Origin: Alphaproteobacteria bacterium RIFCSPLOWO2_01_FULL_40_26
Lineage (GTDB): Bacteria; Pseudomonadota; Alphaproteobacteria; Rickettsiales; UBA1997
DNA length: 64,000 bases
NCBI GenBank assembly: GCA_001767955.1
Contig: MEMO01000021.1
Location: 8,344-72,343, forward strand
Direction: 5' to 3'
The notes under the pieces were generated by a model that did no database searches, was not told the DNA's origin, and worked only from the letters and a program-made list of their open reading frames with translations. Position numbers and translations under genes: made by a program. Shown here piece by piece: positions 1 to 59,706 of the stretch. Position 1 is the stretch's first letter. Each line of letters begins with the position of its first letter.

Positions 1-901
1 TTTTTAGCGCATTTTCTGATGTGCCGCAGGTGATTATAACATCACATGAGAAATTTTTTAGCATCTTTGCCGCTGAAATTTTTGTGATCATACCTCCAGT
101 TCCAACCAAAGAACCAGCACTTCCAGCCATATTTTCAATTTCCTTGGTAATTTCAAAAACTTCCGTGATCAGATTAGAGCCTGTATTCAAACCCACCACA
201 TTTCGCTTTTGCCCAAATTTTGGCTCGTTTTTTGGCAAAATTTTTTGCAGTATGCCAGATACAGCGGCAAAATTTTGCCAAAAAGTCGCACAAAATTTGG
301 ACAAAATCGAAACGCGCTGGGTTTGAATACAGGCTCTGGCATTTTTGTGAGTTCTGGGATTTTTTTCATAAAGCCCATCGATATCGGAAAACAGAATAAG
401 CAAATCAGCATCAGCCATTTGCGCCACGCGCGCAGCGAGACGATCATTATCTCCAATTCTGATTTCATCGACCGCCACCGAATCATTTTCATTGATGATT
501 GGAATTACCGAATTCTTCAGCAAGGTTTCAACGGTATTTTTGCAGTTGAGATAGCGATCACGCACATTGCAATCAGAAGCGGTGAGAAGAATTTGTGCCG
601 CCTGCAATTTCTGCCTGAAAAAAAAATCGCGATAAAAACCCATGAGATGGATTTGCCCAATCGCTGCCGCCGCCTGTTTTTCTTCCAAAGAAAGTTTTTT
701 GTTTACTGTTTTTAAAGCTTGACGTCCCAGGGCAATTGCTCCCGAAGAAACAATGATGATCTGAAAATTTTTTTTCACCAAATCGGCAATATTTGCGGTA
801 AAATTTTTCAGCCATTTTTCGCGCAATTTTCCTTCCGAAACCAAAAGCGATGAACCGATTTTTATGACCAGTTTTTTTTTCTCTTTGAGATCAAATTTCA
901 T
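1..901 (-). CDS. proB: Glutamate 5-kinase ProB; its C-terminal end runs off the window start; contains an in-frame 162-nt palindromic-element insertion
   Basis: Manual translation from ATG 901-899 (absent from the ORF track because there is no stop in the window): MKFDLKEKKKLVIKIGSSLL..IIVSSGAIALG..INENDSVAVDEIRIGDNDRLAARVA..GTGGMITKISAA. The frame stays open down to nt 2. Confidence 0.8.
   Translation of the reverse strand, partial: MKFDLKEKKKLVIKIGSSLLVSEGKLREKWLKNFTANIADLVKKNFQIIIVSSGAIALGRQALKTVNKKLSLEEKQAAAAIGQIHLMGFYRDFFFRQKLQAAQILLTASDCNVRDRYLNCKNTVETLLKNSVIPIINENDSVAVDEIRIGDNDRLAARVAQMADADLLILFSDIDGLYEKNPRTHKNARACIQTQRVSILSKFCATFWQNFAAVSGILQKILPKNEPKFGQKRNVVGLNTGSNLITEVFEITKEIENMAGSAGSLVGTGGMITKISAAKMLKNFSCDVIITCGTSENALK
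177..336. mobile_element. 160-bp palindromic MITE-like element, family A copy A1 (inside proB)
   Basis: Termini GAGCCTGTATTCAAACCC / GGGTTTGAATACAGGCTC. Its reverse complement matches 19991-20150 with only a few mismatches. Confidence 0.85.
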
Positions 902-6460: not shown

Positions 6461-6620
6461 GAACCTGTCCTGAATCTTTTTTAACCCCAGATTTTAGCAT
6501 GTTTTTAGCGCTTTTTTGACAAAATTACGAAGCGTATCTGGAAATACGGTGAGTAATTTTGTCAAAAAATAAGCAAAAACAGGGTAAAATATGGGGTTAA
6601 AAAAGATTTAGGACAGGTTC
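6461..6620. mobile_element. 160-bp palindromic MITE-like element, family B copy B1 (reverse orientation), interrupting uvrC
   Basis: IRs GAACCTGTCCTGAATCTTTTTTAACCCC / GGGGTTAAAAAAGATTTAGGACAGGTTC, flanked by a TAA direct repeat. The core matches 41077-41236, 49737-49896 and 59547-59706. Confidence 0.9.
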
Positions 6621-11742: not shown

Positions 11743-11902
11743 GGCACTGTTAACTAATTATTTTTTTCGGGATTTTTCGCTAATTTTTAGCGACTTTTTT
11801 AAAAAATTTCGCCGCTGTATCAGATATACTGCAAGAAATTTTTTGAAAAAATGAGCAAAAATTTGCGGAAAAGCACGGAAAAAATAATTAGTTAACAGTG
11901 CC
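11743..11902. mobile_element. 160-bp palindromic MITE-like element, family G copy G1
   Basis: IRs GGCACTGTTAACTAATTATTTTTT / AAAAAATAATTAGTTAACAGTGCC with TA flanks. The core is similar to family A and G2. Confidence 0.85.
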
Positions 11903-19753: not shown

Positions 19754-20175
19754 GGCTGATAATGATAGCGACATTGCACAATGATCACACGACCATCTTG
19801 AATCATGTAAACTAGCCGGTGCTCATCATTGATCCGACGCGACCAAAAACCGGATAAATTACCTCTCAACGCTTCTGGTTTTCCGGTTCCAGAAAATGGA
19901 GTACGAGCAATTTCTTTAATTAAAGCATTAATTCGCTTGATCATCGTTCTATCATGTTGCTGCCAATAAACATAGTCTTCCAAGGCATTAGAGCCTGTTT
20001 TCAAACCCAGCGCGTTTCGATTTTGCCCAAATTTTGTGCGACTTTTTGGCAAAATTTTGCCGCTGTATCTGGCATACTGCAAAAAATTTTGCCAAAAAAC
20101 GAGCCAAAATTTGGGCAAAAGCGAAATGTGGTGGGTTTGAAAACAGGCTCTAAAATCAAAACTAATTTGTTTCAT
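19750..20175 (-). CDS. yoeB: YoeB/Txe-family toxin carrying a 54-aa in-frame palindromic-element insertion after residue 8
   Basis: ..ALEDYVYWQQHD..RTPFSGTGKPEALRGNLSGFWSRRINDEHRLVYMI..VIIVQCRYHY. Confidence 0.8.
   Translation of the reverse strand: MKQISFDFRACFQTHHISLLPKFWLVFWQNFLQYARYSGKILPKSRTKFGQNRNALGLKTGSNALEDYVYWQQHDRTMIKRINALIKEIARTPFSGTGKPEALRGNLSGFWSRRINDEHRLVYMIQDGRVIIVQCRYHYQP
19991..20150. mobile_element. 160-bp palindromic MITE-like element, family A copy A2 (inside yoeB)
   Basis: GAGCCTGTTTTCAAACCC..GGGTTTGAAAACAGGCTC with TA flanks. Confidence 0.9.
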
Positions 20176-21559: not shown

Positions 21560-21601
21560 TTAGAGACACAACACTTCTGATAACAACCAAATTTTTGGTT
21601 G

Positions 21602-26706: not shown

Positions 26707-29700
26707 CCTTTTTCATAAGTTCCTTTGTCTACCGCTTGTTTACTTTGTCGCTGTTTCTTCCATTTTGACTCCGAGTCAGGCTTATGCTGTTTATGAAGGT
26801 GTGCGCGGAATCGATGATCATCCGACTTCAGGCACACAACCGGCAATCACTTTTGATGCCGAAAAAAACAAATGTGACACTAGTTCAATCGCCTTTCTTC
26901 CAACCGGTGTTAATGATGATTTCAACATCAAACTTGATAATCCAACCTGTATCGCCTTCATCGCCGCATCAGGCGCGGTGATGCTGGCCGCCGACATCAC
27001 TGCCAGATTATTATGCAAGGCAGCGGTCACCTATCCTCCCAATGCCGCCAAATCAGCGGAAGAAACCGTTTCAGAAACAGCTTTGGGGCCCCCGATACCA
27101 TATCCAACTCCAATACTTCCAGTCAGGCTTGCCATGAAATCCGGTCAATGTGCATTCAGAGCTGGAAGCGCCATTACAGCCTGTGCCGGTCCGCAAGCAG
27201 TAGTTTTATGCGCACCAGCTTCAGCAGATGTAGCCATGTGCTGTGGCAGTGTTGCCGCATATCTTGTTGCTGCTGGTTTAATGATGGCCGCTTTAGCCAT
27301 CATCTGGAATCAGTCGGTAATTGCCTATGAAGACGCCAGAATCTGCGGTCATGGCTGGTCAAGATGGGCACGCTTTTCTCCTGAAATCGGTGGCACCGGA
27401 TCGGATGGTGAAGTTTCAACTGGTGGCAAATGGGTAAAAACCAGAGGTCCGCATCTATTGCGTCTACAACAACTATTTGCCGAAAAATATCCAACCTCTC
27501 CCGAACAAGATGCGATCGATTCCTACAAGAACGATAGCCCAAATCTTTACTGCGATGATTATTCCACCACCCGCAATATCACCAACAGATGTTATCGTGA
27601 ATTTATCTATGGCGGCGTTGAGTTTGAAGATAATGGCGATAATTCATGCGATAATCCAAGCAATTGGGATACAGCGAAGAAAAACCAGATACTTGGCTAT
27701 TCCTCAAACAAACAGCGTTATTACATGACCGGCCCGGGCAATGCGCCGGTTTATGCCTGCCACCGTTTTATCGCCACAACCAAAGATGAATCCGAAAGAT
27801 CAGCAATTCAGGCCGCTTATGATTGCTGCAAAAGGAGAAGCCAAAATGCGGTATGTTTACAACACAGAACCGGATTTGGCGGTATTCGCGGTGAATATCA
27901 GCATGGTTTTTGTGAAATAGGATCAAGATGTTCTGTTGCCAATATCACCTTTGAAGCCTTTGCCAGCCGTAGCCAGCCGAATTATGCCTGCATAAAAAGC
28001 TATTCCGTCTGTCCTTACGACCATCTCCTTGGCGGCGGCACTGAACAAAGAAAATATAACTCATCCGATCCTGCCATAGTCGACAATTTCTGCCAGTTCA
28101 TGAACCATTGCTCAAAATTGCCGGTTTTGCCCTATATCAGAACTCACAATTTTGAAGGTGAGTTCATTTCTGCCGCATGCCATGATATGAAAGGCGATTC
28201 GCAGAATGTTTATGGCTATACCAGTGAATTGGTTCCAATCAATACACGCGGTTTTTCTGCTCCGATGATCCAGTGTTTTAAAGAAACGATGGAAAATGTT
28301 TTTCTGCACAAGGCTGGTCACACCAAATGTCTGAATGCCGACGAAACTCCAAACCGGGATGGGATTTGTCAAAGCGGCTATGTTTATCGCGAAGGGCAAA
28401 CTATGTCCGGAAAATCATTTTTTGTAAAAATTCAGGACAATCTTCAGGAAGTGATCAAAATAGCCTTAACCATGTCAATTGTGCTGTTCGGCATGGCCAT
28501 ATTGCTTGCGGTTCCACAGGCTTATGTCACCAAAAAAGTTCTGCTCATCTATGTTTTAAAAATCGGCCTGGTGATGTATTTCGCCGTGGGTGATGCCTGG
28601 CAAAACCAATTCATGACCGGAGTTCTTAACAGTTCAACTTTTCTGGCTGATCTAACCTTCAAAATTGATGAAAGCGCTCCTCCGGAAAAACTGGATGGAT
28701 GCCAATTCCCACGCTTTAATTATGCTGATTCAAGCGAAGCAACCAAATATGACATTCGGCAATATCCTCCAGACAAAGATTATCTACGGGTTTGGGACAC
28801 TCTCGATTGCAAAATCGCAAGAGCTTTGGGCTTTGGCCCTGAAGTGTCGGTGCCAAATCTGGTGTTGATGATTTTGGGCGGATTTTTTACCGGCGGTCTT
28901 GGCATTGTATTTTTTGTCGGCGCTTTCATTTTTGCCTTTTTCTTAATCGCATTAACAGTCAAGGCGCTGCACATCTTTTTGATGTCAATAACCAGCGTTA
29001 TAATTCTGATTTACGTTTCTCCAATCACCATCACCCTCGCCTTTTTTGCCAAAACCAAAGGAGTTTTTGATGGGTGGTGGAAGCAAATGCTCGGCTTTAC
29101 CCTGCAGCCAATGATTCTTTTCGCCTATCTTGGAATCATGATAACAATTTTTGACAAAATGATAATCGGCGCCGACGTCACATTTAGCGGCACCTCTGAT
29201 GATCCTCACGGTCGCAGAACACCAAAATCAATTGTCTGCAATAGTGCAGCACAGGATAGCAGCATTTACTGCATTTTCAGGATTGCCGACATCAAAACCT
29301 ATACCGGCCTCGAAGTTCTGGGCATAGGTTTGCCAATGCTTGGCTCAATAAATGGAGCAAAGCTTGAAAACATCATAAGAGCAGCGCTGGTTATGTTTAT
29401 CCTCACCAAATTCATGGATAAAATTACCGAATTTGCTGCAGCTTTGGTTGGCGGCGCCGAACTTAAATCAGACTGGAATATTTCCGCCGCCGGCATGGCC
29501 GCCAAATCTTATGCAGCGCTTCGACAAATACAGACGCGCGCTATGCATGGGTTAAAGAAACATGGCGGCAAGGTTGCAAGAAAAGGTGTTGAGGGCATGA
29601 AAGGCTTGGCACACGCTGCTGGCGATAAAGGTAAAGCTATCAAAGCTCCGTCATCACCAGGAGGCGTCACAGCTGCAGTTGGGCCTGAAAAATCAGGTGT

Positions 29701-30169
29701 AACGGAGGCTGTCAGAGAAACTGGTAGTGACGGAGGAGATCAGGCAGTTGCAACCGGCGATTCGCAATCATCAACACCATCAACAGATGAAGGTAGAAAA
29801 GGAGCTGATGCGGCAGTGGCAGATAGAGGAGATGGCGCAGACAGAGCAACCGGTGATGGCGCAGCGAAATCGGAAGAACGCACTCCTGGCGGAAGTGGAG
29901 ATTCTCCGAGTAGCGATGGAGGATCTGCAGAGGAAGCTCGTGATAGTGCTTCATCATCAAATTCTGGCGGAGATGCGGGAAGTGGTGGTGGTAGTCCTAC
30001 AGACGGATCTTCCACTGCTTCTCCATCCGATTCTTCTGCACCAACATCTGCTGGCAGTGCAGGTGGCGATGGAGGTGGTTCTGAAATTCCTACTGCATCT
30101 CCTGATGCTGGTTCTGCTGCATCTGCCACAGATGGCGGCTCCGCCCCTGGTTCAGCCAGCAGCTCCTGA
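26693..30169 (+). CDS. Giant membrane protein. It has a signal peptide, a Cys-rich ~590-aa N-terminal domain, a VirB6/TrbL-like polytopic core and a disordered S/G/D/A-rich tail.
   Basis: About 27 Cys in the first ~590 aa by my count; about 7 TM segments between aa ~600 and 900 with a large loop after TM2; GVFDGWWKQMLGFTLQPMILFAYLGIM. The tail runs from aa ~960. Confidence 0.5.
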   Translation: MRRSSLFHKFLCLPLVYFVAVSSILTPSQAYAVYEGVRGIDDHPTSGTQPAITFDAEKNKCDTSSIAFLPTGVNDDFNIKLDNPTCIAFIAASGAVMLAADITARLLCKAAVTYPPNAAKSAEETVSETALGPPIPYPTPILPVRLAMKSGQCAFRAGSAITACAGPQAVVLCAPASADVAMCCGSVAAYLVAAGLMMAALAIIWNQSVIAYEDARICGHGWSRWARFSPEIGGTGSDGEVSTGGKWVKTRGPHLLRLQQLFAEKYPTSPEQDAIDSYKNDSPNLYCDDYSTTRNITNRCYREFIYGGVEFEDNGDNSCDNPSNWDTAKKNQILGYSSNKQRYYMTGPGNAPVYACHRFIATTKDESERSAIQAAYDCCKRRSQNAVCLQHRTGFGGIRGEYQHGFCEIGSRCSVANITFEAFASRSQPNYACIKSYSVCPYDHLLGGGTEQRKYNSSDPAIVDNFCQFMNHCSKLPVLPYIRTHNFEGEFISAACHDMKGDSQNVYGYTSELVPINTRGFSAPMIQCFKETMENVFLHKAGHTKCLNADETPNRDGICQSGYVYREGQTMSGKSFFVKIQDNLQEVIKIALTMSIVLFGMAILLAVPQAYVTKKVLLIYVLKIGLVMYFAVGDAWQNQFMTGVLNSSTFLADLTFKIDESAPPEKLDGCQFPRFNYADSSEATKYDIRQYPPDKDYLRVWDTLDCKIARALGFGPEVSVPNLVLMILGGFFTGGLGIVFFVGAFIFAFFLIALTVKALHIFLMSITSVIILIYVSPITITLAFFAKTKGVFDGWWKQMLGFTLQPMILFAYLGIMITIFDKMIIGADVTFSGTSDDPHGRRTPKSIVCNSAAQDSSIYCIFRIADIKTYTGLEVLGIGLPMLGSINGAKLENIIRAALVMFILTKFMDKITEFAAALVGGAELKSDWNISAAGMAAKSYAALRQIQTRAMHGLKKHGGKVARKGVEGMKGLAHAAGDKGKAIKAPSSPGGVTAAVGPEKSGVTEAVRETGSDGGDQAVATGDSQSSTPSTDEGRKGADAAVADRGDGADRATGDGAAKSEERTPGGSGDSPSSDGGSAEEARDSASSSNSGGDAGSGGGSPTDGSSTASPSDSSAPTSAGSAGGDGGGSEIPTASPDAGSAASATDGGSAPGSASSS

Positions 30170-30341: not shown

Positions 30342-31016
30342 TCAAATTAGAACCTGCTCTCTAAAACTGAAATAACCCTCTTTCGCAATAATCAGATGAT
30401 CTAACACTTTGATTTCCAAATTCTTCAGCGCGGCGGAAATTTCATTGGTGGTTTTGATGTCATTTGCTGAAGCGCGTAAATCGCCGCCTGGATGATTATG
30501 CAACAAAATCACAAAAGAAGCATGAAGCATCAGAGCCTTTCTCGCCACTGTTTTGGCGCTTACAACAACATGATCATTTTCTCCGATGCCAAGCAATTCG
30601 TCCTCAATGAGACGGTATTTTTTATCGAGAAAAAGCACGCGAAAAACTTCGTAATCCAAATCTTTCAGAGCGACGCTGGCGTAGTCCAAAACTGCTTGCC
30701 AATCATTTAAAACCGGTTTTTTGCGCGCGGAATTTTTTAAAACACGATGCAGAATTTCGCTGATGATTTTGATTTGAGTAATTGCCGCCTCTCCTACCCC
30801 CTCAACACTTCTCAACATTTCAACATCGGCGCTAATCACTGCGGAAATATCGCCAAATTTTGTTATTAATTTTTTGGCGATCGCTTTGGTATCCTGCCTT
30901 GGATGCGCGGCAAAAAGCAGGATTTCCAACAATTCATAATCGTGGAGTTCCTTTCCAAGCGAGGCGAGAAATTTTTTTCTAACGCGTGATCTATGTCCGA
31001 GATAATCGTCTATCAT
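30342..31016 (-). CDS. radC: RadC-family JAB-domain protein
   Basis: ILLHNHPGGD JAMM motif; HhH-like N-terminal half. Confidence 0.85.
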   Translation of the reverse strand: MIDDYLGHRSRVRKKFLASLGKELHDYELLEILLFAAHPRQDTKAIAKKLITKFGDISAVISADVEMLRSVEGVGEAAITQIKIISEILHRVLKNSARKKPVLNDWQAVLDYASVALKDLDYEVFRVLFLDKKYRLIEDELLGIGENDHVVVSAKTVARKALMLHASFVILLHNHPGGDLRASANDIKTTNEISAALKNLEIKVLDHLIIAKEGYFSFREQVLI

Positions 31017-31183
31017 AACCCCAATAACGCTTAAGGAATTATGGCTTAAGTCTACAAACTCTGAGTAAAACCAATAAACTCCACCACACTGTCACCCCGC
31101 GGGGTGACAGTGTGGTGAGATTTGTGATTTAGCTTAGAGTCTGTAAATTTGAATCTGGGTTTCTTAAACGTTATTGGGGTTAT
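31015..31183. mobile_element. Palindromic MITE-like element, family F copy F1
   Basis: IRs ATAACCCCAATAACGCTTAAG / CTTAAACGTTATTGGGGTTAT; centre CCACCACACTGTCACCCCGC|GGGGTGACAGTGTGGTGAG. Confidence 0.85.
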
Positions 31184-31802
31184 CATAAATTCGTGGTGTA
31201 ATTTTATCGGTTGTAAAATTTTTTACTCCCAAAATTTCAAGCTCGCGCATTCTGTTTAAATCATTCACCGTCCAGGCAAAAATTTCAGTATCAGGAAATT
31301 TTTTCATAAAATTTTCATCTATCAGATCATGAAAAATTGACAGGAATTTTATGTTTTTTGGCAATGCATTGATATCTTTATCGCAAACCACGACCAGCTG
31401 CGCATCATCACCAAAAACCTCAATAATTATGGCAAAAAATTTTTCTGCGATTTTGTAGTCGGTGATAAAAGGGGCAAAATAAATTTTTTTTAAATCTATA
31501 AATGCTTTATCAAAATCTTTCTTGACCATAATCATAACTTCCTTCGCATTTTCTTCGGTTAGATTTTTAAAATCTAACCAGTAATCCATTTCATTACCGA
31601 AAAGCAGAAAATCACTAAGACTTGTCAAACTTTCTCCGGCTCTTGGTTGATCATGCGCTAAAACCAGGTTTCTTTTCAGAACCCAAATATCAAACTCAAC
31701 AGCGCGAAAGCCGTGTTTGTAAGCTTTCTTTAAACTTGCAACTGAATGTTCGGCGATATTTTTATGCGGACAAAAACCGCGATGGGCAAATAACCGTATC
31801 AT
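31164..31802 (-). CDS. Glycerophosphodiester phosphodiesterase-family protein
   Basis: FAHRGF..H..ASL..A...GF.AVEFDIW..LVLAHD pattern. The last 6 codons (DNPNNV) lie in element F1. Confidence 0.6.
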   Translation of the reverse strand: MIRLFAHRGFCPHKNIAEHSVASLKKAYKHGFRAVEFDIWVLKRNLVLAHDQPRAGESLTSLSDFLLFGNEMDYWLDFKNLTEENAKEVMIMVKKDFDKAFIDLKKIYFAPFITDYKIAEKFFAIIIEVFGDDAQLVVVCDKDINALPKNIKFLSIFHDLIDENFMKKFPDTEIFAWTVNDLNRMRELEILGVKNFTTDKITPRIYDNPNNV

Positions 31803-34268: not shown

Positions 34269-34286
34269 CCCTGATCTGGGATTAGT

Positions 34287-34523
34287 ATAACCCCAATAAC
34301 GCTTAAGGAATTATGGCTTAAGTCTACAAACTCTAAGTAAAACCAATAAACTCCACCACACTGTCACCCCGCACTTGTTGCGGGGTCCATTTGGTCGCAA
34401 CCAATAAAATCAAGTCTTTGACGAGATGGACCCCGCAACAAGTGCGGGGTGACAGTGTGGTGAGATTTGTGATTTAGCTTAGAGTCTGTAAATTTGAATC
34501 TGGGTTTCTTAAACGTTATTGGG
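34287..34523. mobile_element. Family F copy F2 with a nested family E double hairpin (34373-34443)
   Basis: Same arms as F1, but the centre carries ACTTGTTGCGGGGTCC..GGACCCCGCAACAAGT. A 12-bp direct repeat GGGATTAGTATA occurs at 34278-34289 and 34521-34532. Confidence 0.85.
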
Positions 34524-36289
34524 ATTAGTATATCTTCTATCACCATCTGCACTCTCTCAACACCCATCCAACTGTTGACATTCAAGCTTCCGATCAGATT
34601 AAGCGGTTTGGTAAATTTGGGGTCGAGAAGAATTTGCGCAAGCGGTGTATTGGCGCTTCTAAAAGCAATTGCCTGAATTTGTCCGTTAAATCCAAGCGCA
34701 GTTCTGGCAGAAAAAACACAGCTGATATGATCCTGACTTTGTCCAACCAATCTCGCATTCACCTTAACAACATCGCGCAGAAGAAACTTTGGACGCACAT
34801 TGCCAACACCAAATGGCTCTAGCTTCGACAGCTCTTTCAGTAAATCAATATTTACCTGCACCAAATCAAGTGCGATATCAAATTCAGAATTTTTTTTGGC
34901 AGTAATTTCAATAATTTTCTTTCCCAAATTTTCACAAAAAAACTGATGCAACGCCGGAATTTTTTCTGTTAAAATTGAAAATCCTCCAGCCATGGCATGC
35001 CCTCCTCCATCAAGCAATAAGCCGCTTAAACGCGCATTCAGAATTTCCGCGCCAAAATCAATTCCGGCAATTGAGCGACACGAGGCCTTACCTTTTTCTT
35101 CATCAAGAGCAATTACTGCGACAGGCCTATTGTACAAATCCTTGAGCCGTGAAGCAACAATGCCAATCACGCCTTGATGCCAGTTTTTTGATGTAGCAAA
35201 AATCACCGGATCGGAAATTGCAAAACCATTAATACCGGCTTCCAATGACTTTACCGCCTCTTCCAAAACCTGCGCTTCAATGTCTTTGCGCTGACGGTTT
35301 AAAATTTCGAGCTGCGCTCCGATTTCATCAATTTCACTTTCATCTTCGCTTGAAAGAATTTTTGCCCCAAAATCAGACTTGCCAATACGACCGCCAGCGT
35401 TGATGCGCGGACCAATAATAAAACCAAGATGATAGGAATTTGGTTCTTCATCCAAAGAGGCAAGATCACAAATTTTGCGCAATCCGAGATTTTTTCGCTG
35501 CTTCAAAACCTTTAACCCCTGTGCTACGAAAGCACGGTTTAAGCCGGTTAATGACATAACATCGCAAACCGTTCCAAGCGCAACTAAATCAAGTAAATCC
35601 AAAAGATTTGGTTCTTTTTTTTGTGAATAAAAACCGCTTTCACGTAATTTTTTGTTAATCGCCACCGCAAACAAAAACGATACTCCGGCAGCGCAGAGAT
35701 TTTTATGCGGAAAAGTTTCATTAAGAAGATTGGGATTGATAACCGCGATGGCTTCAGGTTTTTCAAGCACTCCGAGATGGTGATCAATGACGATAATTTC
35801 CAAACCGGCGAGCTTTGCATCTTCAAGTGGCTTAAAAGCTACAGTGCCACAATCAACGGTGATCACCAAATCAGTGCCATTTTTTTTAAGATTTAAAAGC
35901 GCCTGCGAATTTGGACCATAACCTTCGAGGATGCGATCTGGAATGTAGATATTAACTTCAATTCCAATCTCACGAAAGAAGCGTTTAAGCAAAGCTGCGC
36001 TTGTTGCGCCATCAACATCATAATCAGCAAAAATTGTGATTTTTTTTCGCGCCTGAATCGCTGCAATTACATGTGAAACTGCCTTGCCCATATCGCTCAA
36101 CTCAAATGGATCTGGTAGAGAAATTTTGATTTTTGGCTGCAAAAAATTCTCAACTTCATCAAGAGAAATTTCACGCGAAGCAAGAAGATTACTTAAAATT
36201 TCTGAAAGCTGAAAACGCTGGCAAATCGTTGTCGCATGGCGTTCATCAAAATTTTTTTGTTGCCAATTAAAACCGAGAACTGAATGCAT
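34364..36289 (-). CDS. recJ: Single-stranded-DNA exonuclease RecJ with ~50-aa element-encoded C-terminal extension
   Basis: DHH motifs (FADYDVDGATS, VIDHH) and DHHA1 GGGHAMAGG. Start at [11 protein letters not shown] (36289), overlapping the ilvD stop by 1 nt. Confidence 0.9.
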   Translation of the reverse strand: MHSVLGFNWQQKNFDERHATTICQRFQLSEILSNLLASREISLDEVENFLQPKIKISLPDPFELSDMGKAVSHVIAAIQARKKITIFADYDVDGATSAALLKRFFREIGIEVNIYIPDRILEGYGPNSQALLNLKKNGTDLVITVDCGTVAFKPLEDAKLAGLEIIVIDHHLGVLEKPEAIAVINPNLLNETFPHKNLCAAGVSFLFAVAINKKLRESGFYSQKKEPNLLDLLDLVALGTVCDVMSLTGLNRAFVAQGLKVLKQRKNLGLRKICDLASLDEEPNSYHLGFIIGPRINAGGRIGKSDFGAKILSSEDESEIDEIGAQLEILNRQRKDIEAQVLEEAVKSLEAGINGFAISDPVIFATSKNWHQGVIGIVASRLKDLYNRPVAVIALDEEKGKASCRSIAGIDFGAEILNARLSGLLLDGGGHAMAGGFSILTEKIPALHQFFCENLGKKIIEITAKKNSEFDIALDLVQVNIDLLKELSKLEPFGVGNVRPKFLLRDVVKVNARLVGQSQDHISCVFSARTALGFNGQIQAIAFRSANTPLAQILLDPKFTKPLNLIGSLNVNSWMGVERVQMVIEDILIPITFKKPRFKFTDSKLNHKSHHTVTPHLLRGPSRQRLDFIGCDQMDPATSAG

Positions 36290-40055: not shown

Positions 40056-41090
40056 ATGACCGATTTAGAAAAACTTTTATCCGATTTCAATTCGCAAGTT
40101 TTTGCAATTAAAGACAAGAAAAGCCTTGAGGAAATTCGCATTAGTTTTCTTGGAAAAAAAGGTTTGGTAACCGAGCTTTTTTCACAGCTAAAAAATCTTG
40201 CCGCTGAAGAAAAAAAATCATTTGGAGCAGGAATAAACCAGCTTCGCGATCAAATCACAAAACAACTCGACGATAAAAAAGATGAATTTGAAATAGCTGA
40301 ATTAAACGAAAAATTAAGTGACGAAAAAATTGATCTTACCGAACCGGTTCGCAAAAAAAGCATTGGCCTGATTCATCCAGTCAGCAAAGTGATGAGAGAA
40401 ATCGAAGAAATTTTTTCACAGTTTGGATTTGAATTTGCTCAAGGCCCGGAAATTGAAGATGATTTTCACAATTTCACCGCACTCAATATCGACGAAACCC
40501 ATCCGGCACGCCAGATGCAAGACACTTTCTATCTCAAAAATTCTGAATTATTGCTGCGCACTCACACTTCAAATGTGCAAATCAGAAAAATGCAAAATTC
40601 CAAACCACCTTTTAGAATTGCGGCTTTGGGACGCGTTTTTCGTTGTGATTCCGATCAAACTCACGCACCGATGTTTCACCAGTTTGAAGGATTTGTTGTC
40701 GATGAAAATATCACAATGGGACATCTCAAATGGACGTTAGAAAATTTTTTACAGAAATTCTTTGGGGATAGAAATCTTGAGTTGCGTTTTCGTCCAAGCT
40801 TCTTCCCATTCACCGAACCATCAGCCGAAGTTGACATAAATTACACCATCGAGCAGGAAAAAATTAAAATTGGCAATGGTGATAAATTCATGGAAATTCT
40901 TGGATGCGGCATGATTCATCCAAATGTTTTAAGAAACTGCGGAATTGACGATGAAAAATTTCAAGGCTTCGCCTTCGGCATAGGAATAGAGCGCCTCGCC
41001 ATGCTAAAATATGGCATTGCTGATTTGCGGATGTTCTTTGAAAATGATGTGAGGTTTTTGAATCATTTTGGGTTTAGAAACTGTTTATAA
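40056..41090 (+). CDS. pheS: Phenylalanyl-tRNA synthetase alpha subunit (no adjacent pheT); last 4 codons and stop lie inside element B2
   Basis: HPARQMQDTFY, FRCDSDQTHAPMFHQFEG, GFAFGIGIERLAMLKYGIADLRMFFENDVRFL. Confidence 0.95.
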   Translation: MTDLEKLLSDFNSQVFAIKDKKSLEEIRISFLGKKGLVTELFSQLKNLAAEEKKSFGAGINQLRDQITKQLDDKKDEFEIAELNEKLSDEKIDLTEPVRKKSIGLIHPVSKVMREIEEIFSQFGFEFAQGPEIEDDFHNFTALNIDETHPARQMQDTFYLKNSELLLRTHTSNVQIRKMQNSKPPFRIAALGRVFRCDSDQTHAPMFHQFEGFVVDENITMGHLKWTLENFLQKFFGDRNLELRFRPSFFPFTEPSAEVDINYTIEQEKIKIGNGDKFMEILGCGMIHPNVLRNCGIDDEKFQGFAFGIGIERLAMLKYGIADLRMFFENDVRFLNHFGFRNCL

Positions 41091-41236
41091 TCTTTTTTAA
41101 CCCCATATTTTACCCTGTTTTTGCTTATTTTTTGACAAAATTACTCACCGTATTTCCAGATACGCTTCGTAATTTTGTCAAAAAAGCGCTAAAAACATGC
41201 TAAAATCTGGGGTTAAAAAAGATCATAAACAGTTTC
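41077..41236. mobile_element. 160-bp palindromic MITE-like element, family B copy B2
   Basis: GAAACTGTTTATAATCTTTTTTAACCCC..GGGGTTAAAAAAGATCATAAACAGTTTC, flanked by a TTA direct repeat. Confidence 0.9.
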
Positions 41237-42175
41237 TTAGAACCAGTATTTAAAAAGCTCTGGCAATTTGGTTTTAATTTTCAGTTTCCCAATTTTGATT
41301 TCATGGGCATGAAGACAAAGACGATCTGAAATATCTTTTCGCAACACTTTTTTTCCGCCGTATTTTACATCATTGATGATGGGATGTCCGATTTCCTTGC
41401 AATGAACACGGAGCTGATGGGTGCGGCCAGTAAGCGGTTTTAACTCAAGCAATGAATAATCTGTAAAACTTTTTAAAACTTTAAATTCAGTAATCGCCTC
41501 TTTTCCCTCCTCAAAATCAGGAGAAACTTTTTCGTTTTTGCCTTGAATTTTTTTGCGCAGAGGAATGTTAATTATGCCATGCGATTTTTTTGGAATGCCG
41601 TAAACCAAGGCTAGATATGTCTTCTTGATGGTTTTGTTTTTAAAAGCTTCAGTCAGAAATTCAGTGGATTTTGCATTTTTGGCTATAAGTAAAATACCAG
41701 AAGTGTCTTTGTCGAGACGGTGAACTAATTGCCATTTCTCGTGCTTCGTGCTTCGTGCTTCGTGCTTCGGAATTATGGAATTTTGGTGAAATAAAAAGTC
41801 ATCAACCGAAACATCTATGCCGCTTCCTCCTTGAGTGGCAAGGCCTGAAGGCTTATCAAGCGCGATCAGATTTTCATCTTCAAAAATTATCCACGACAAA
41901 AATTTTTGCATTTTTGCGGTAGAAATTTTTGTTCTTTGTTTCTGATTTTCACGACGGTTTTTTAGATCAGAAAAAATTTCTACCTGATCTGCATCTTTGA
42001 TTTTATAGGCTGAATCAACTCTTGCGCCATTGACTTTCACTTTCTTTTCACGAATCAGTTTTTGCGCCAGAGCAAAAGAAATATCAAATTTTTTACAGAG
42101 AAATTTATCGAGACGAAGGCCTGCTAACTCTTGATTAGCATGGCTTAGGGCGTGTTGACATTCATTTTTATTCAC
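41237..42175 (-). CDS. RluA-family pseudouridine synthase (RluC/RluD-like) with S4 domain and in-frame heptad-repeat insertion
   Basis: S4 LRLDKFL..; catalytic HRLDKDTSG; TGRTHQLRVH. The GTG start lies inside element G2. Confidence 0.85.
   Translation of the reverse strand: MNKNECQHALSHANQELAGLRLDKFLCKKFDISFALAQKLIREKKVKVNGARVDSAYKIKDADQVEIFSDLKNRRENQKQRTKISTAKMQKFLSWIIFEDENLIALDKPSGLATQGGSGIDVSVDDFLFHQNSIIPKHEARSTKHEKWQLVHRLDKDTSGILLIAKNAKSTEFLTEAFKNKTIKKTYLALVYGIPKKSHGIINIPLRKKIQGKNEKVSPDFEEGKEAITEFKVLKSFTDYSLLELKPLTGRTHQLRVHCKEIGHPIINDVKYGGKKVLRKDISDRLCLHAHEIKIGKLKIKTKLPELFKYWF
41748..41770. repeat. Family C heptad arm (GTGCTTC)x~4, translated in frame in the pseudouridine synthase gene
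   Basis: CTCGTGCTTCGTGCTTCGTGCTTCGTGCTTCGG encodes ..PKHEARSTKHEK.. immediately upstream of the HRLD motif. Confidence 0.8.
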
Positions 42176-42307
42176 AGTTTTTCAGAAATTTTTAGCGACT
42201 TTTTTGAAGAATTTTGAAGCTGTATTAGACATACTGCAAAAAATTCTTCAAAAAAATGAGCAAAAATTTGTGGAAAAATGGGAATAAAAATGAATGTCAA
42301 CACGCCC
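42148..42307. mobile_element. 160-bp palindromic MITE-like element, family G copy G2
   Basis: IRs GGGCGTGTTGACATTCATTTTTATTC / GAATAAAAATGAATGTCAACACGCCC with TA flanks. The core is shared with G1 and family A. Confidence 0.85.
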
Positions 42308-42699
42308 TAATTGCATATCAATTTCATCAAATGAAAACCGAAAAACAAAGCGACAATTGAAATTACGACAGAAGAAATCGCATAAATCGCGGCTTGAGGA
42401 TATTGGCCGGCAGTGGCTAGACGGAAGAAATCAAGCGAAAAAGATGAAAAGGTTGTGAACCCTCCGAGAAAACCGATGAGCAAAAAATTCTTCAAACGCG
42501 GATCAAAATTGTCAAAATTTTTGATGATGAAATAGTAGATAATGCCTGCAAACATTGATCCCGCAACATTCACAAAAAAAGTTCCCCAAGGAAAATTTGT
42601 TAGAGAATGGTTGAGTTTCGTGATTGCTTCCGACGAAAGATAACGCGCAACAGAACCTAAAGCACCACCGATTGCGATTAAAATCAAATTTGTCATCAA
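42307..42699 (-). CDS. crcB: Fluoride ion channel CrcB
   Basis: 130 aa, 4 TM; [10 protein letters not shown] and [12 protein letters not shown]. Confidence 0.9.
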
Positions 42700-46390: not shown

Positions 46391-46450
46391 TTTGTGCTTC
46401 GTGCCTCGTGCTTCGTGCTTCGTTAATTTTGAACCACGAAGCACGAAAAC
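46391..46450. repeat. Family C heptad-arm hairpin (copy C7) just upstream of gltX
   Basis: TTTGTGCTTCGTGCCTCGTGCTTCGTGCTTCGTTAATTTTGAACCACGAAGCACGAAAAC. Confidence 0.8.
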
Positions 46451-46539
46451 ATAAAACTTTAGGAACAATCAAAAAATCATTTTACATTTTGCATTACATT
46501 TTGATTTTTGCATTTTGATTTTGCATTCGAAATTAATTA

Positions 46540-48240
46540 ATGATCACTTCTTCTACTAACACAGATATCGGCGCCAAACTTCTGGAAAAAAAAGTAATTT
46601 CCGATGATCAGCTAGCCATTGCCGTCAAAGAGTGTGAGCGCATTAAAGGCGCAAAAACCGTCGGCGCAATTTTGATTGAGATGGGTTTTATTTCCGAAGG
46701 CGCACTCGGTGAAATCCTCAATGAATCAACCGGAGTTAAAAAATTCGACATCAAATCAGCCATCATTGATGCCAAGCTGGTCAAAAAAGTGCCAAAAGAT
46801 TTTGCCACTCACAACAAGCTGATTACGGTTTCATACACTCACGATTCGATCACCATCGGCATGAATGATGTTTTTGATATTGTTGCTATCGATCAGGTTC
46901 GGCGCTTCTTTCCGCCAAATTTTCATATCAATCCGGTTTTTGTTCCTGAAACCGATATCATTGCCGCCATTGATCAGTATTATGGCTATGAGATGTCAAT
47001 CGAGGGCATACTCAAAGAAATTGAAAGCAACGCCAATAAAACCTTCGACGAAACACAACTCAAAGGTGATTATAAAAGCCCGATGGTACGTTTGGTTGAC
47101 GCGATTTTAACCGATGCGGTGCATCGCGGCGCCTCGGATTTACACTTTGAACCGGAAGCATTATTCCTGCGCATCCGCTACCGCATTGATGGCAAGATGA
47201 TGCAGATTCGCAGCATTCACAAGGAATATTGGTCGGCAATTGCGGTGCGCATAAAAATCATGTCCGGCATGAATATCGCAGAAAGCAGGAAACCACAGGA
47301 TGGACGCATCAATTCCGAAATTCTCGGACGCAAAATCGATTTTCGTGTTTCCACTCAGCCAACAATCAATGGGGAAAATATCGTGATGCGTATTCTCGAT
47401 GAAAAACAATCGATCATTTCGCTCGACAAGCTTGGCTTCTCTGATATTAGCATCAATTTGATGAAGAAAATGGTGCAACGTCCGGAAGGGGTGATCATAC
47501 TCACCGGTCCTACAGGTTCAGGTAAAACCACCACTCTATACACGGTTTTAAACTACATCAACTCCATCGACAAAAACATCATGACTCTCGAAGATCCGGT
47601 GGAATATCATATCCCGCTGGTTCGGCAATCAAACATTCGTTCCGATATTGGCATGGATTTTGCCGCTGGCATCAAAGCCTTATTGCGTCAGGATCCGGAT
47701 GTAATTCTGGTTGGTGAAATTCGCGATAAAGATACAGCAATCACCGCCATTCAGGCGGCGATGACTGGTCATCAGGTTTACAGCTCGCTACACACCAATG
47801 ATGCGCTTGGTGCAATTCCGCGCCTGATGAATATCGGCGTGCCAAATTATCTGATGTCCGGCTCATTGATTGGTGTGGTAGCACAACGTTTGGCACGCAA
47901 ACTCTGTCCACATTGCAAAAAAGAATTCCCGCTCGACTCATTTGAAAAAAAGCTGCTCGGCCCTAAATACACCAATGCTGAAAAAATTTTCAAAGCCGTT
48001 GGCTGTGAAAAATGCCGCAGCGGCTATAAAGGACGCGTGGTCATTTGTGAAATTCTTCCCTTTGATCGCGAATTTGATGAGCTCGTTACCAACGCCGCCA
48101 GCCGCAAGGAGATGTTGTCCTATGTCTTAAAACAAGGCTTCGTGCCAATGGTTGAAGACGGAATACAAAAGGTGATAGCAGGAATAACCGATATAAAAGA
48201 ACTGATGCGGGTTGTTGATATGACAGACCGGATGAGTTAG
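46540..48240 (+). CDS. GspE/PilB-family secretion ATPase (type II secretion / type IV pilus assembly) with MshEN-like N-domain
   Basis: Walker A LTGPTGSGKTTT, Asp box, Walker B ILVGEIRD, tetracysteine CPHC..CEKC. Confidence 0.85.
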   Translation: MITSSTNTDIGAKLLEKKVISDDQLAIAVKECERIKGAKTVGAILIEMGFISEGALGEILNESTGVKKFDIKSAIIDAKLVKKVPKDFATHNKLITVSYTHDSITIGMNDVFDIVAIDQVRRFFPPNFHINPVFVPETDIIAAIDQYYGYEMSIEGILKEIESNANKTFDETQLKGDYKSPMVRLVDAILTDAVHRGASDLHFEPEALFLRIRYRIDGKMMQIRSIHKEYWSAIAVRIKIMSGMNIAESRKPQDGRINSEILGRKIDFRVSTQPTINGENIVMRILDEKQSIISLDKLGFSDISINLMKKMVQRPEGVIILTGPTGSGKTTTLYTVLNYINSIDKNIMTLEDPVEYHIPLVRQSNIRSDIGMDFAAGIKALLRQDPDVILVGEIRDKDTAITAIQAAMTGHQVYSSLHTNDALGAIPRLMNIGVPNYLMSGSLIGVVAQRLARKLCPHCKKEFPLDSFEKKLLGPKYTNAEKIFKAVGCEKCRSGYKGRVVICEILPFDREFDELVTNAASRKEMLSYVLKQGFVPMVEDGIQKVIAGITDIKELMRVVDMTDRMS

Positions 48241-48249
48241 AGCCTGTTA

Positions 48250-48409
48250 GAGCCTGTCTTAAAACCCAACGTGTCTCGATTTTCCATAAATTTTGAGCGA
48301 CTTTTTGGCAAAATTTTGCCGCTGTATCTGGCATACTGCAAAAAATTTTGCCAAAAAACGAGCCAAAATTTATGGAAAAGCGAGGCGCGGTGGGTTTTAA
48401 GACAGGCTC
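48250..48409. mobile_element. 160-bp palindromic MITE-like element, family A copy A3 (intergenic)
   Basis: GAGCCTGTCTTAAAACCC..GGGTTTTAAGACAGGCTC. The core is identical to A2 and the arms differ by paired substitutions. It is preceded by a 10-bp duplication TTAGAGCCTG (48237-48246 / 48247-48256). Confidence 0.9.
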
Positions 48410-49711: not shown

Positions 49712-49737
49712 TTTAAGATTTAGGATTTAGGATTTAG
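49711..49737. repeat. (GATTTAG)n 7-bp microsatellite abutting the left end of element B3
   Basis: ATTTAA GATTTAG GATTTAG GATTTAG; the last G is the first nt of B3. Confidence 0.8.
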
Positions 49738-49896
49738 AACCTGTTCAGGATCTTTTTTAACCCCATATTTTACCCTGTTTTTGCTTATTTTTTGACAAAA
49801 TTACTCACCGTATTGCCAGATACGCTTCGTAATTTTGTCAAAAAAGCGCTAAAAACATGCTAAAATCTGGGGTTAAAAAAGATCCTGAACAGGTTC
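49737..49896. mobile_element. 160-bp palindromic MITE-like element, family B copy B3
   Basis: GAACCTGTTCAGGATCTTTTTTAACCCC..GGGGTTAAAAAAGATCCTGAACAGGTTC with TTA flanks. Confidence 0.9.
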
Positions 49897-49924: not shown

Positions 49925-49998
49925 GGCTGGGTAGCAAAGTGGTAATGCAATGGCCTGCAAAGCCTTCATCGCCGGTTCGATTCCGGCCCCGGCCTCCA
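49925..49998 (+). tRNA. tRNA-Cys (anticodon GCA), CCA encoded
   Basis: Acceptor GGCTGGG/CCCGGCC (one G-U pair); anticodon loop CTGCAAA; T arm GCCGG-TTCGATT-CCGGC; discriminator U then CCA. Confidence 0.9.
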
Positions 49999-50008: not shown

Positions 50009-51211
50009 ATGAATCACTCTCTTCACTCACAATATTTTCTCAACATTTCCACGACAAAAAAATTCCTGCAAATCTGCCGGAAATCTGCCGCAATTTTACG
50101 CAGTGAAATCAAAGCAAAAAAAATTGCCGCTATTGACGAGGTTTTTTCCAATCAGGACTTTTTAGAATTGGTTAAAAAGATTTCTCCTTACCAGAAAATT
50201 CTGGTTTTAGGTGTAGGTGGATCAAGCCTTGGTGGCAAAACTTTAAGTGCTTTAAAACCGCAAAATAAGCTGGAATTTCTGGAATCAATTGATCCTGCAA
50301 CTGTTAAAAATTGTTTGTCAAAAATTGATTTGAGAAACGCCTTTTTTTTAGTCATCAGCAAATCCGGCGAGACAATTGAAACCATCTGCCAAACCTTGAT
50401 CATAGTTGATCAGCTGCACAAAGAAAAAATCAGAAATTCTGCCAAACAATTTTTATTTATCACCGAATCGCAAACAAATTCTCTGGCTAAAATCGCCAAA
50501 AAAATCGGCGCCGAAATCGCCAATCATCCAAACAAAATCGGTGGGCGTTATTCATGTTTTTCAATAGTCGGATTATTGCCTTCATTGCTTTGCGGACTTA
50601 ATATCAAAAAAATCCGCGATGGCGCAAAAAAAACTTTGGGAGAATTTTTAAGTAAAAATGAAATTGCTGATTCATGCGCCATTCAACTCTCTTGCTACGA
50701 AAAAAACATCAGTGGCAATGTCATCATGCCTTATGTTGATAGTCTGAAAAATTTCACCGACTGGTATCGTCAATTATGGGCAGAATCTTTAGGAAAAAAT
50801 AATTTCGGCTCAACTCCAATCAACTCAATGGGCACCATAGATCAGCACAGTCAATTACAGCTTTACCTTGATGGTCCAAAAGACAAATTTTTCACCTTCA
50901 TCACTACTAAAAATCATCAAAATGATTTTGCCATCAAAGATCTTCCCGACTGCAAAACATTGTTCGGCAAAAAAAAATTAAGCCAAATTGTTGCGATTGA
51001 ACAACAAACAACCATCGAAGTTTTAAACCGCAAAAAACTACCAATCAGAATTTTTGAAATCGAAAAACTCGATGAAGAAATTTTAGGCGCTCTGATGATG
51101 CGGATATTTCTTGAAACCATTGTGATTGCTTACGCCAAAAACATAAATCCCTTTGATCAGCCTGCCGTTGAGTTGCGCAAAAATTTGGCGAAAGAAATTT
51201 TAAAGAAATAG
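50009..51211 (+). CDS. pgi: Glucose-6-phosphate isomerase (short ~400-aa type)
   Basis: ILVLGVGGSSLGGKTL, FLVISKSGETIET, GGRYSCFSIVGLLP. Confidence 0.8.
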   Translation: MNHSLHSQYFLNISTTKKFLQICRKSAAILRSEIKAKKIAAIDEVFSNQDFLELVKKISPYQKILVLGVGGSSLGGKTLSALKPQNKLEFLESIDPATVKNCLSKIDLRNAFFLVISKSGETIETICQTLIIVDQLHKEKIRNSAKQFLFITESQTNSLAKIAKKIGAEIANHPNKIGGRYSCFSIVGLLPSLLCGLNIKKIRDGAKKTLGEFLSKNEIADSCAIQLSCYEKNISGNVIMPYVDSLKNFTDWYRQLWAESLGKNNFGSTPINSMGTIDQHSQLQLYLDGPKDKFFTFITTKNHQNDFAIKDLPDCKTLFGKKKLSQIVAIEQQTTIEVLNRKKLPIRIFEIEKLDEEILGALMMRIFLETIVIAYAKNINPFDQPAVELRKNLAKEILKK

Positions 51212-51274
51212 ATCCTGAAACAAGTTCAGGATGACGGAGTTTGAAATTTGTCATCCTGAACTTGTTTCAGGATC
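51211..51274. repeat. Double-hairpin palindrome, family I
   Basis: GATCCTGAAACAAGTTCAGGATGAC..GTCATCCTGAACTTGTTTCAGGATC with TA flanks. The first G completes the pgi TAG stop. Confidence 0.85.
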
Positions 51275-51288
51275 TAAAAATCAAAAAA

Positions 51289-59298: not shown

Positions 59299-59327
59299 AA
59301 TTTACTTTACTCTCCCTAGCTCATTTA

Positions 59328-59423
59328 CCCCTCACCCCAACCCTCTCCCACAAGGGGAGAGGGAGTTAGTCCGAATTCGGTGCAACTCCCTCTCACCTTG
59401 TGGGAGAGGGTTGGGGTGAGGGG
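59328..59423. repeat. 96-bp GC-rich palindromic element, family D copy D2
   Basis: Reverse-orientation match to 14860-14955 with TA flanks. Confidence 0.9.
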
Positions 59424-59514: not shown

Positions 59515-59547
59515 TTTAGGATTTAAGATTTAGGATTTAGGATTTAG
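59513..59547. repeat. (GATTTAG)n 7-bp microsatellite (~5 units) abutting the left end of element B4
   Basis: AATTTAG GATTTAA GATTTAG GATTTAG GATTTAG. Confidence 0.8.
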
Positions 59548-59706
59548 AAACTGTTTATGATCTTTTTTAACCCCATATTTTACCCTGTTTTTGCTTATTT
59601 TTTGACAAAATTACTCACCGTATTTCCAGATACGCTTCATAATTTTGTCAAAAAAGCGCTAAAAACATGCTAAAATCTGGGGTTAAAAAAGATCATAAAC
59701 AGTTTC
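59547..59706. mobile_element. 160-bp palindromic MITE-like element, family B copy B4
   Basis: GAAACTGTTTATGATCTTTTTTAACCCC..GGGGTTAAAAAAGATCATAAACAGTTTC with TTA flanks. Confidence 0.9.

Follow-up and report, generated by a model that had tools for sequence, protein, structure and literature searches.

Small palindromic repeats such as the Rickettsia palindromic elements (RPEs), ERIC sequences (enterobacterial repetitive intergenic consensus) and Correia-like repeats are common in bacteria, and their mode of movement is mostly unknown. Long stem-loops, compensatory changes and the lack of a transposase gene are general traits of MITEs, the miniature inverted-repeat transposable elements (PMC3184786, PMC10969869). 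Here we describe nine repeats of this kind in 64,000 nucleotides of DNA (the window) from Alphaproteobacteria bacterium RIFCSPLOWO2_01_FULL_40_26 (GenBank contig MEMO01000021.1, positions 8,344 to 72,343 of the forward strand). The host is a Rickettsiales-like groundwater alphaproteobacterium, and the closest matches of its RluD protein, at ~70% identity, are proteins of freshwater metagenome-assembled genomes (MAGs) labelled Rickettsiales. The repeats were first noticed from the sequence of the window alone, as three families (A, B and G) with one geometry and co-varying arms; we refer to this as the original prediction.

The nine repeats prove to be genuine members of a single family of small non-coding mobile elements, that is, of MITEs. 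The reading that we favor, with a probability of about 75%, is that they belong to an undescribed MITE superfamily mobilized in trans by a DDE transposase (IS5/IS427/IS1031-like or IS630-like), on which a constraint acting through a folded strand has been superimposed. The family is unusual mainly for its strict 160-base hairpin, and the strand-specific constraint on that hairpin is the one feature worth following up.

The Nine Copies and Their Common Origin

The copies in the window, and one remnant, are as follows.

G2 (the focal copy), 42148..42307, plus strand: 160 bp; ends GGGCGTGT...ACACGCCC; TA flanks left and right; crcB on one side and rluD on the other (both genes minus strand).
G1, 11743..11902, plus strand: 160 bp; ends GGCACTGT...ACAGTGCC; TA flanks left and right; pgpA on one side and a histidine-kinase gene on the other.
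A1, 177..336, minus strand: 160 bp; 98% complementary to A2; TA on one side, TG/CA on the other.
A2, 19991..20150, plus strand: 160 bp; TA on both sides; in frame within the toxin gene yoeB.
A3, 48250..48409, plus strand: 160 bp; TA on both sides; downstream of a T2SSE/MshE ATPase gene.
B1, 6461..6620, plus strand: 160 bp; TAA on both sides; within uvrC; orientation opposite to B2, B3 and B4.
B2, 41077..41236, minus strand: 160 bp; flanked left and right by TTA as read on the plus strand; between pheS and rluD, which are convergent.
B3, 49737..49896, minus strand: 160 bp; TTA on both sides; its end 28 nt upstream of tRNA-Cys (49925-49998).
B4, 59547..59706, minus strand: 160 bp; flanked left and right by TTA; upstream of the gene for iPGM.
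Solo-end remnant TA-GAGCCTGT-TA, 48238..48249, plus strand: adjoins A3 on the left.

At all nine coordinate pairs the element is exactly 160 bp long, begins with G and ends with C, as had been predicted, and the flanks also read as described: TA for two of the three A copies (A2 and A3) and for both G copies, and TTA for B2, B3 and B4, which becomes TAA at the oppositely oriented B1. The core said to be common to A and G is found five times in the window against 0.13 expected. Repeat detection in the window returned the same two groups, together with long inverted repeats within each copy. The predicted fold of G2 has an energy of -78.2 kcal/mol, compared with -26.7 +/- 3.4 for shuffled sequences (z = -15.3).

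The relationship between the families has to be redrawn. The original prediction gave family B a different core and saw three families sharing one geometry; when B is oriented by its central loop, however, the nine copies align over 160 columns with zero gaps and a mean identity of 77%, and ~45-60 invariant columns are common to A, B and G, including the apical loop of B, GTATCTGG(A/C)ATAC. The gapless alignment and the shared invariant columns imply that A, B and G are homologous and form one superfamily, not a set of independent convergent designs, and the 160-bp geometry is therefore inherited.

For a wider sample, public metagenome contigs were scanned with a scaffold pattern, which gave 50 loci (436 kb) from the same population as the window. 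A profile made from the nine window copies (nhmmer) retrieved ~100 elements from these contigs; 51 full copies, in six clusters and ~95% of them 160 bp long, were left once the same locus from different samples had been removed, and they include chimeric subfamilies with a G-type core inside A-type ends (cluster 4). Counts of invariant columns and of arm pairing are based on 41 distinct copies, and counts of wobble states on 51 loci x 59 stem positions. Transposase and repeat searches covered the window and ~0.8 Mb of related contigs.

Outside this population the family is narrow, since a stricter 21-base scaffold pattern found it, among species-representative genomes (which do not include the window's own), in only three related MAGs. 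The A/G core motif gave 89 matches in species-representative genomes, nearly all due to chance, with a real element only in L050. A protein search with the peptide encoded by the A type matched three short open reading frames (ORFs) only, and thus gave no sign of wide spread. The terminal sequences of the 160-bp elements led, in the searchable literature, to unrelated primers only.

Length and Anatomy of the Hairpin

The original prediction laid weight on a fixed length, and its check on a larger sample bears this out in large part. In the population contigs the length distribution is narrow: 138 of 142 full-length nhmmer matches, both strands counted (~69 of 71 elements), are 160 bp long, and the others are 158 and 226 bp. 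The rule is strong but not absolute. A scan for paired terminal inverted repeats (TIRs) 100 to 4000 bp apart added variants of 104 and 205 bp, as well as nested composites, and the copies in the related species-representative MAGs measure 157 and 159 bp, the third being truncated by a contig end. The 104-bp variant is a symmetric internal deletion and the 157-bp relative carries paired deletions in both arms. Length would be held by the constraint on the hairpin, because an insertion or deletion in one arm needs a matching one in the other. Helical phasing was considered as a cause of the fixed length and rejected: the lengths of 104 and 160 bp come close to whole helical turns, those of 205 and 226 bp do not.

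The terminus G-N4-TGT (columns 1 and 6-8) and its mirror ACA-N4-C (columns 153-155 and 160) are invariant in 41 of 41 distinct copies, and the further invariant columns consist of T runs in the left half and A runs in the right half. Fixed length combined with compensatory change in the arms had been taken as an argument against a conserved transposase-binding end. With an invariant 8-nt terminus in every distinct copy this argument falls, and the data do not speak against a terminus of that kind. The periodicity of AA/TT dinucleotides peaks at 10.5-10.75 bp (power 2.5, against at most 0.36 in shuffles), the invariant A/T tracts being phased at ~10.6 bp. Between these tracts lie blocks of 5-7 nt that are wholly different between subfamilies and always matched to their mirror block. 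The arms are complementary over ~68 nt and include a conserved mismatch of two purines at 30/131 (G·A in family B, A·G in the other two families) and a conserved asymmetric 6x6 internal loop (positions 47-52 versus 109-114); a conserved apical region occupies positions 69-92.

Covariation of the Arms and Asymmetry of the Strands

Covariation between the two arms is far above what their recent shared ancestry gives. RNAalifold places 62 pairs on the 41 distinct copies, and 39 of them have changed on both sides, compared with 9-18 when the partners are slid along the alignment. Paired states fill 98.9% of the cells, whereas column shuffles give 79.3% (none of 500 as high) and sliding the partners by 1-3 columns gives 37-57%; the covariation score, 0.545, drops to 0.177 on shuffling and to 0.04-0.12 with slid partners. 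Up to five pair types occur at a single stem position. The original prediction is upheld here on each of its points: the arms of each copy stay reverse complements at a rate that neither control approaches, the covariation test that it called for reveals an excess of compensatory substitution, and the paired substitutions that set A3 apart from A2 are present in the alignment.

One particular single strand seems to matter. Among the stem positions, G·T states number 19 distinct (84 cells), of which 13 occur at more than one locus, whereas A·C states, which are G·T on the opposite strand, number six distinct (eight cells), with one occurring at more than one locus. In all 51 copies the strand oriented as A2 on the plus strand has a more stable fold than the opposite strand, the gap averaging 7.2 kcal/mol with RNA parameters and 7.8 kcal/mol with DNA parameters; the copies are not independent in this comparison, because part of the gap comes from the shared core, and the stem counts are therefore the better evidence. 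Relative to genes that read into the element, insertion orientation is 18 versus 18, so neither host transcription nor a genome-wide strand bias explains the asymmetry of the wobble states. With such host effects excluded, it must arise in the propagating lineages, either because a folded single strand is under selection or because one strand is preferentially exposed.

It had been proposed that the fixed length and the compensatory changes reflect selection, or a copying mechanism, acting on the folded hairpin. The second half of this argument is strengthened by the covariation, by the 19 to 6 excess of G·T over A·C states and by the more stable fold of the same strand throughout. The first half is weakened, as the geometry is inherited and the length is not strictly fixed.

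Insertion, Target Duplication and Loss

Nested insertions prove that the elements have moved as discrete 160-bp units. An A3-type copy (L118 6414-6573) lies within a B copy, and its joined flanks give a B element at 97.5% identity with TA present once. Conversely, a B copy (L113 3812-3971) lies within an A-type copy at CTGTC-TTA-AAACC, 323 bp in total, and intact A copies have a single TTA there.

Types A, G and GACACTGT duplicate 2 bp of the target (TA), often at C/T-TA-G/A sites, and type B duplicates 3 bp (TNA). The flanks of B-type copies vary but agree with each other (TTA/TTA, TAA/TAA or TCA/TCA); being variable yet matching, the repeat must be a copy of target DNA and does not belong to the element. 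Duplications of TA and TNA point to staggered cuts of 2 or 3 nt at integration, as made by DDE transposases. B-type ends differ by one base from A-type ends (GAACCTGT versus GAGCCTGT), yet duplicate 3 bp rather than 2.

The only polymorphic copy found is B2, which is absent from four loci of other samples (L091, L093, L094 and L095) that are otherwise 99.9% identical; the difference in length is 163 bp. The "empty" allele reads GGGT-TTA-GAAACTGT-ATTT, in which 8 nt identical to the element end are retained, and the filled allele reads TTA-GAACCAGT to the right of the element. A single deletion between TTAGAAaCtGT and TTAGAAcCaGT, which are imperfect direct repeats, accounts for the empty allele, whereas insertion needs two more substitutions. 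The C-termini of RluD from relatives are highly variable in the tail and do not polarize the presence or absence of B2. Solo-end remnants also stand beside other copies, as GAGCCTG|GGCTC in L106 and as longer stubs in L096 and L100. Together with the B2 deletion and the 104-bp variant, these remnants indicate that palindrome-stimulated deletion is frequent and takes place between short repeats at the base of the hairpin.

Effects on Genes and Genome Order

Many copies lie at gene ends. At ~34 of 102 junctions the 3' end of a gene falls within -33 to +56 nt of the element, and at 13 of these junctions the stop codon of the gene lies in the duplication: ten are TAG, made of TA and the element's G, and three are TAA, from the B-type duplication. 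In others the reading frame continues 8-56 nt into the element before a stop. The TAG stop of crcB (42307-42309, minus strand) is thus formed by the TA repeat and the last base of G2, and that of the ATPase gene by TA and the G of the solo-end remnant left of A3, while the histidine-kinase frame enters G1 by 12 nt before a TAA stop. The predicted GTG start of rluD (42175) lies 28 nt within G2.

The A type is open in one frame per strand, and the B type has stops in all frames. Because a TA-type element and its duplication add 160 + 2 = 162 nt, or 54 codons, insertion in frame is possible. A2 lies between codons 8 and 9 of yoeB, and an ORF of 141 amino acids continues through the whole element. 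The gene belongs to a yefM-yoeB toxin-antitoxin pair (19750-20425, minus strand), with YefM encoded just upstream. Another A-type element is in frame inside an intein in a 512-amino-acid ORF (L105). The gene concerned encodes IscU/NifU and its intein junctions read ...FKTFGC|LPSNN...VMSHN|CGSAIASS... (L105 7021-8559, also in L124). B1, which with its duplication adds 163 nt, splits uvrC (5332-7159) into ORFs 5332-6519 (395 amino acids) and 6635-7159 (174 amino acids), and its removal restores the frame, as judged from the coordinates. The same split in all eight other assemblies examined indicates that it is fixed in the population.

Each break in synteny or join of scaffolds that was seen when assemblies of the population were compared has an element at it, and B2 and B4 are direct repeats, 97.7% identical and 18.5 kb apart. 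In L197 and L201 pheS is joined to iPGM via one B copy, and in L200 B4 has another left flank. Such changes of synteny at B copies reflect either recombination or false scaffolding across the repeat. The copies alter gene ends, split uvrC and extend a toxin gene in frame, and their presence at synteny breaks is relevant to the annotation and binning of these genomes.

The Putative Mobilizing Enzyme

The window holds no transposase gene, in agreement with the original prediction; this is confirmed by Pfam tables that give the gene content of most of the window, with ORF 21602-22231 and short ORFs outside them. The same tables hold no RAYT or Y1 gene. In the window and the ~0.8 Mb of related loci no IS630-family transposase with matching ends was found; within the ~0.8 Mb of loci, all-against-all BLAST gave no multi-copy bounded repeat resembling an insertion sequence (IS), and a regular-expression search gave no ORF with the YREK signature of the IS5 type. 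Further candidate partners were rejected. Long TIR pairs in the 100 to 4000 bp scan only bracket host genes or toxin-antitoxin modules, the ORFs between paired ends in L097, L134 and L094 are negative or irrelevant in Pfam, and the single PF01609 transposase (496 amino acids, L094) has ends unrelated to the 160-bp elements. The insertion sequence that carries this transposase (L094 1-1638, end CCCGACTTCGGCCACC...) joins pheS at window position 40947, as a real insertion or an assembly chimera.

The TA duplication had been read as the hallmark of IS630/Tc1-mariner insertion. TA is seen for A and G, but it is not specific to that group: in Alphaproteobacteria, elements of the IS427 group of the IS5 family duplicate 2 bp (PMC3281130, Table 2), the IS5-related PIF/Harbinger-ISL2EU superfamily duplicates 0, 2 (TA) or 3 bp (PMC12730594), and B duplicates a 3-bp TNA. 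An IS5-type partner is more likely than IS630, because near-identical ends give both TA and TNA duplications here. A link with IS630 is possible for the TA types and does not cover B. End motifs are also used in ISfinder to assign transposase families, and the ends of IS1031 and IS427 start with GAG or GA/GG.

Weighing the Explanations

In the reading that we favor, a DDE transposase acting in trans would read the G-N4-TGT end and make staggered target cuts of 2-3 nt, and an enzyme of the IS5 family (IS427/IS1031-like, a relative of PIF/Harbinger) may be the mobilizer. Insertion is often into the TA of a stop codon, and the terminal G or C of the element rebuilds TAG. At some stage one folded strand (the "top" strand) or an extruded cruciform would be involved, so that lineages with matched arms spread; the folded form could be single-stranded or cruciform DNA during mobilization, or RNA, and might be kept by selection or by strand-specific exposure. 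Constant length would be a by-product of common descent and the pairing constraint. More speculatively, the phased A/T tracts may bend the duplex, about one persistence length, so that its ends meet.

Several points weigh against this reading. A duplex cut-and-paste DDE reaction needs no strand-specific hairpin, and the two halves of the proposal are not joined mechanistically. The window and ~0.8 Mb of related loci yielded no autonomous element with matching ends, although many accepted MITE families have no known partner. The transposase family is inferred only from duplication length and end motif, the counts behind the strand bias are small, and the subfamilies share ancestry. The sole presence/absence polymorphism, at B2, looks more like a deletion than a fresh insertion, and ongoing insertion is therefore not demonstrated.

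Among the alternatives, we regard as possible, though doubtful, that these are ordinary MITEs whose palindromy is kept by neutral processes at the DNA level (template switching in quasi-palindromes, together with two similar transposase-binding arms), the folded strand having no role. Paired multi-nucleotide changes between close subfamilies (GTC/GAC to AAC/GTT in L102 versus L110) fit templated correction, the deletions and solo-end remnants are those of hairpins that misbehave in replication, and the elements have no promoter, terminator or Rfam family. Templated correction should, however, erase mismatches, whereas the 30/131 mismatch and the 6x6 loop are conserved across all families; neutrality predicts no bias between G·T and A·C, whereas 19 to 6 (13 to 1 for shared states) is seen; and co-evolution of binding sites needs a separate transposase specificity for each of at least eight arm types, of which none was found. 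It is unlikely that the hairpins are instead structured RNAs useful to the host, co-transcribed at gene ends as stabilizers of mRNA 3' ends or as RNase III or RNase E sites, with shape and length kept by selection on RNA. Many copies do adjoin gene 3' ends and 13 junctions share a stop codon, G2 stands within the crcB-rluD gene string, RNase III and RNase E/G are encoded in the same window, tolerance of G·U is typical of RNA, and Correia and ERIC elements act in this way (PMC10969869). The even split of orientations, 18 to 18, would nevertheless leave half of the mRNAs with the less stable strand, selection on single insertions does not explain covariation along propagating lineages, and copies disrupt genes (uvrC and yoeB).

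Two other explanations take the folded strand as the mobile form itself. To a route in which the elements do not simply ride on an ordinary duplex cut-and-paste transposase and a strand-specific folded single strand, DNA or RNA, is recognized by its shape, with the G-N4-TGT at the hairpin base as the sole sequence cue and an enzyme not yet linked to TA-duplicating elements, we likewise give a low probability. Movement as REPIN-like single-stranded hairpins by an HUH tyrosine transposase (RAYT or IS200-IS605 type) is very improbable. A hairpin that makes up the whole unit, compensatory evolution of its arms and strand asymmetry are what that mechanism predicts, but the TTA, TAA and TCA duplications and the nested TA and TTA cases indicate staggered cuts in duplex DNA, which are foreign to HUH transposition; the elements also end in inverted repeats, and the Pfam tables list neither a RAYT nor a Y1 gene. 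Least credible of all are integron attC-like recombination sites that bound gene cassettes. Structure is indeed kept more than sequence, with fixed unpaired bases, and toxin-antitoxin modules lie between element ends or half-elements in L097. Against this, single copies with TA or TNA duplications are dispersed among housekeeping genes, the window has no integrase and no cassette array, and the ends lack GTTRRRY core sites.

Other Repeats and Islands Nearby

The L097 modules form a toxin-antitoxin island (5400-10930, seen also in L141 and L189) of PIN/Phd, Fic/HTH and YafQ/RelB pairs separated by element ends or half-elements. In it, PIN-Phd is enclosed in a 1162-bp unit (6781-7942) whose inverted termini are GAGCCTGTCTT, and two left arms, inverted and 100% identical, face the Fic module. 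In L189, exactly at the end of B1, this island stands in place of the N-terminal portion of uvrC.

Further palindromic repeats occur in the window at 31011-31192, 34282-34537, 63709-63907, 21477-21570 and 51206-51279. One such family is ~180 bp long with ends ATAACCCCAATAACG...CGTTATTGGGGTTAT, and there are also small hairpins of the form GACCCCGCAACAAGTGCGGGGTGACA, which may resemble the cores of Rickettsia RPEs. The copy at 34282-34537 has a small hairpin pair nested at its center, and the 205-bp element (L145) consists of A-type termini around a GACCCCGCAACAAGTGCGGGGTGACA-type hairpin. A GC-rich palindrome of 111 nt, TTACCCCTCACCCCAACCCTCTCCC...GGGAGAGGGTTGGGGTGAGGGGTA, is found at 14847-14957 and 59326-59436, the two copies being 95% complementary. 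Short hairpins with tandem-heptamer arms, (TTCGTGC)n ... (CACGAAG)n, lie at 8540-8616, 9632-9695, 46391-46454, 41738-41770, 1863-1915 and 18361-18413. At 26690-30169 an ORF of 1158-1159 amino acids has a weak match to TrbL (type IV secretion), and the 402-amino-acid ORF that precedes it has no family match.

Comparison with Known Systems

By the usual marks of a MITE, the elements are small (160 bp), numerous (nine copies in 64 kb) and without genes, their open frames encoding only low-complexity peptides that match no family. Terminal inverted repeats are present, with G-N4-TGT / ACA-N4-C invariant, and comparison of filled and empty sites reveals a target duplication (nested TA and TTA occur once in the host element, and B2 accounts for 163 bp); no cognate autonomous IS with the same ends came to light in the window and the ~0.8 Mb of related loci. 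Rfam at gathering score recognizes only tRNA-Cys in the window, the sub-threshold hits being long hairpins of plant miRNA precursors with at most 59 bits against cut-offs of 80-249, and a scan of B2 and G2 for promoters and terminators found none inside the elements.

With the MITEs of the IS5 family (IS427, IS1031, ISL2) and of PIF/Harbinger (Tourist, mPing-like), the elements share the occurrence of TA and TNA/TWA duplications in one superfamily (PMC3281130, PMC12730594). Of the 2-4-bp duplications expected of the IS5 family and PIF/Harbinger, both TA and TNA are seen, whereas the strict TA of IS630 applies to the A, G and GACACTGT types and the B type duplicates a 3-bp TNA. No DDE element (PF01609 or PF13586) with the same ends was found in the related loci. 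The element ends, which begin GA/GG and continue ...CTGT, presumably resemble those of Tourist/PIF. In contrast to those MITEs, with their inverted repeats of 13-21 bp, here the inverted repeat extends over the full length.

REPINs, the pairs of repetitive extragenic palindromic (REP) sequences moved by RAYT, are similar in that a hairpin unit evolves as a whole with compensatory changes, and a single-stranded form has been proposed for them. They make no target duplication, consist of paired GC-rich REPs and are associated with a RAYT gene, whereas the present elements duplicate their target, end in inverted repeats, are rich in AT and lack a RAYT in their vicinity. Closer in general plan are Correia/NEMIS elements of Neisseria, ERIC of enterobacteria and RUP of pneumococcus, which are ~100-200 bp long with inverted ends, TA duplication, a stem-loop over the whole length, frequent location at gene ends, internal deletions or insertions that give rise to size variants, and no internal transposase (PMC10969869, PMC3184786). 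Their sequences are unrelated to those described here, where sister families duplicate 2 versus 3 bp and diverse arms are set on an invariant central scaffold with helically phased A/T tracts and a measurable strand bias of wobbles.

The combination of many subfamilies with unrelated arms on one scaffold, two duplication lengths, nested insertions and strand bias makes this family an unusually clean natural data set for testing whether mobilizing machinery reads the shape of a hairpin or the sequence of its arms. Ten six-frame peptides of the elements matched nothing in NCBIfam, so no similarity to RPE peptides was detected, and the element hidden Markov model matched nothing in three Rickettsiaceae loci. 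RPEs (RPE-1 to RPE-10) are nonetheless, among known elements, the most alike in host range, palindromy, multiple families and in-frame insertion, a likeness by description, with no sequence similarity detected. Both are dispersed palindromic units of a Rickettsiales-related host (100-150 bp for RPEs, slightly less than the 160 bp found here), both occur as several related families per genome with no known mobilizing enzyme, and both are inserted between genes and in frame within them, here in yoeB and the IscU intein (PMC1779305, PMC10969869). The present elements differ from RPEs in their clear TA or TNA duplications and conserved inverted termini, and in that only the A type is open in reading frame. 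Should they prove to be relatives of RPEs, and should a strand indeed be read by the shape into which it folds, this would provide the first concrete mechanism for the movement of RPE-class elements.

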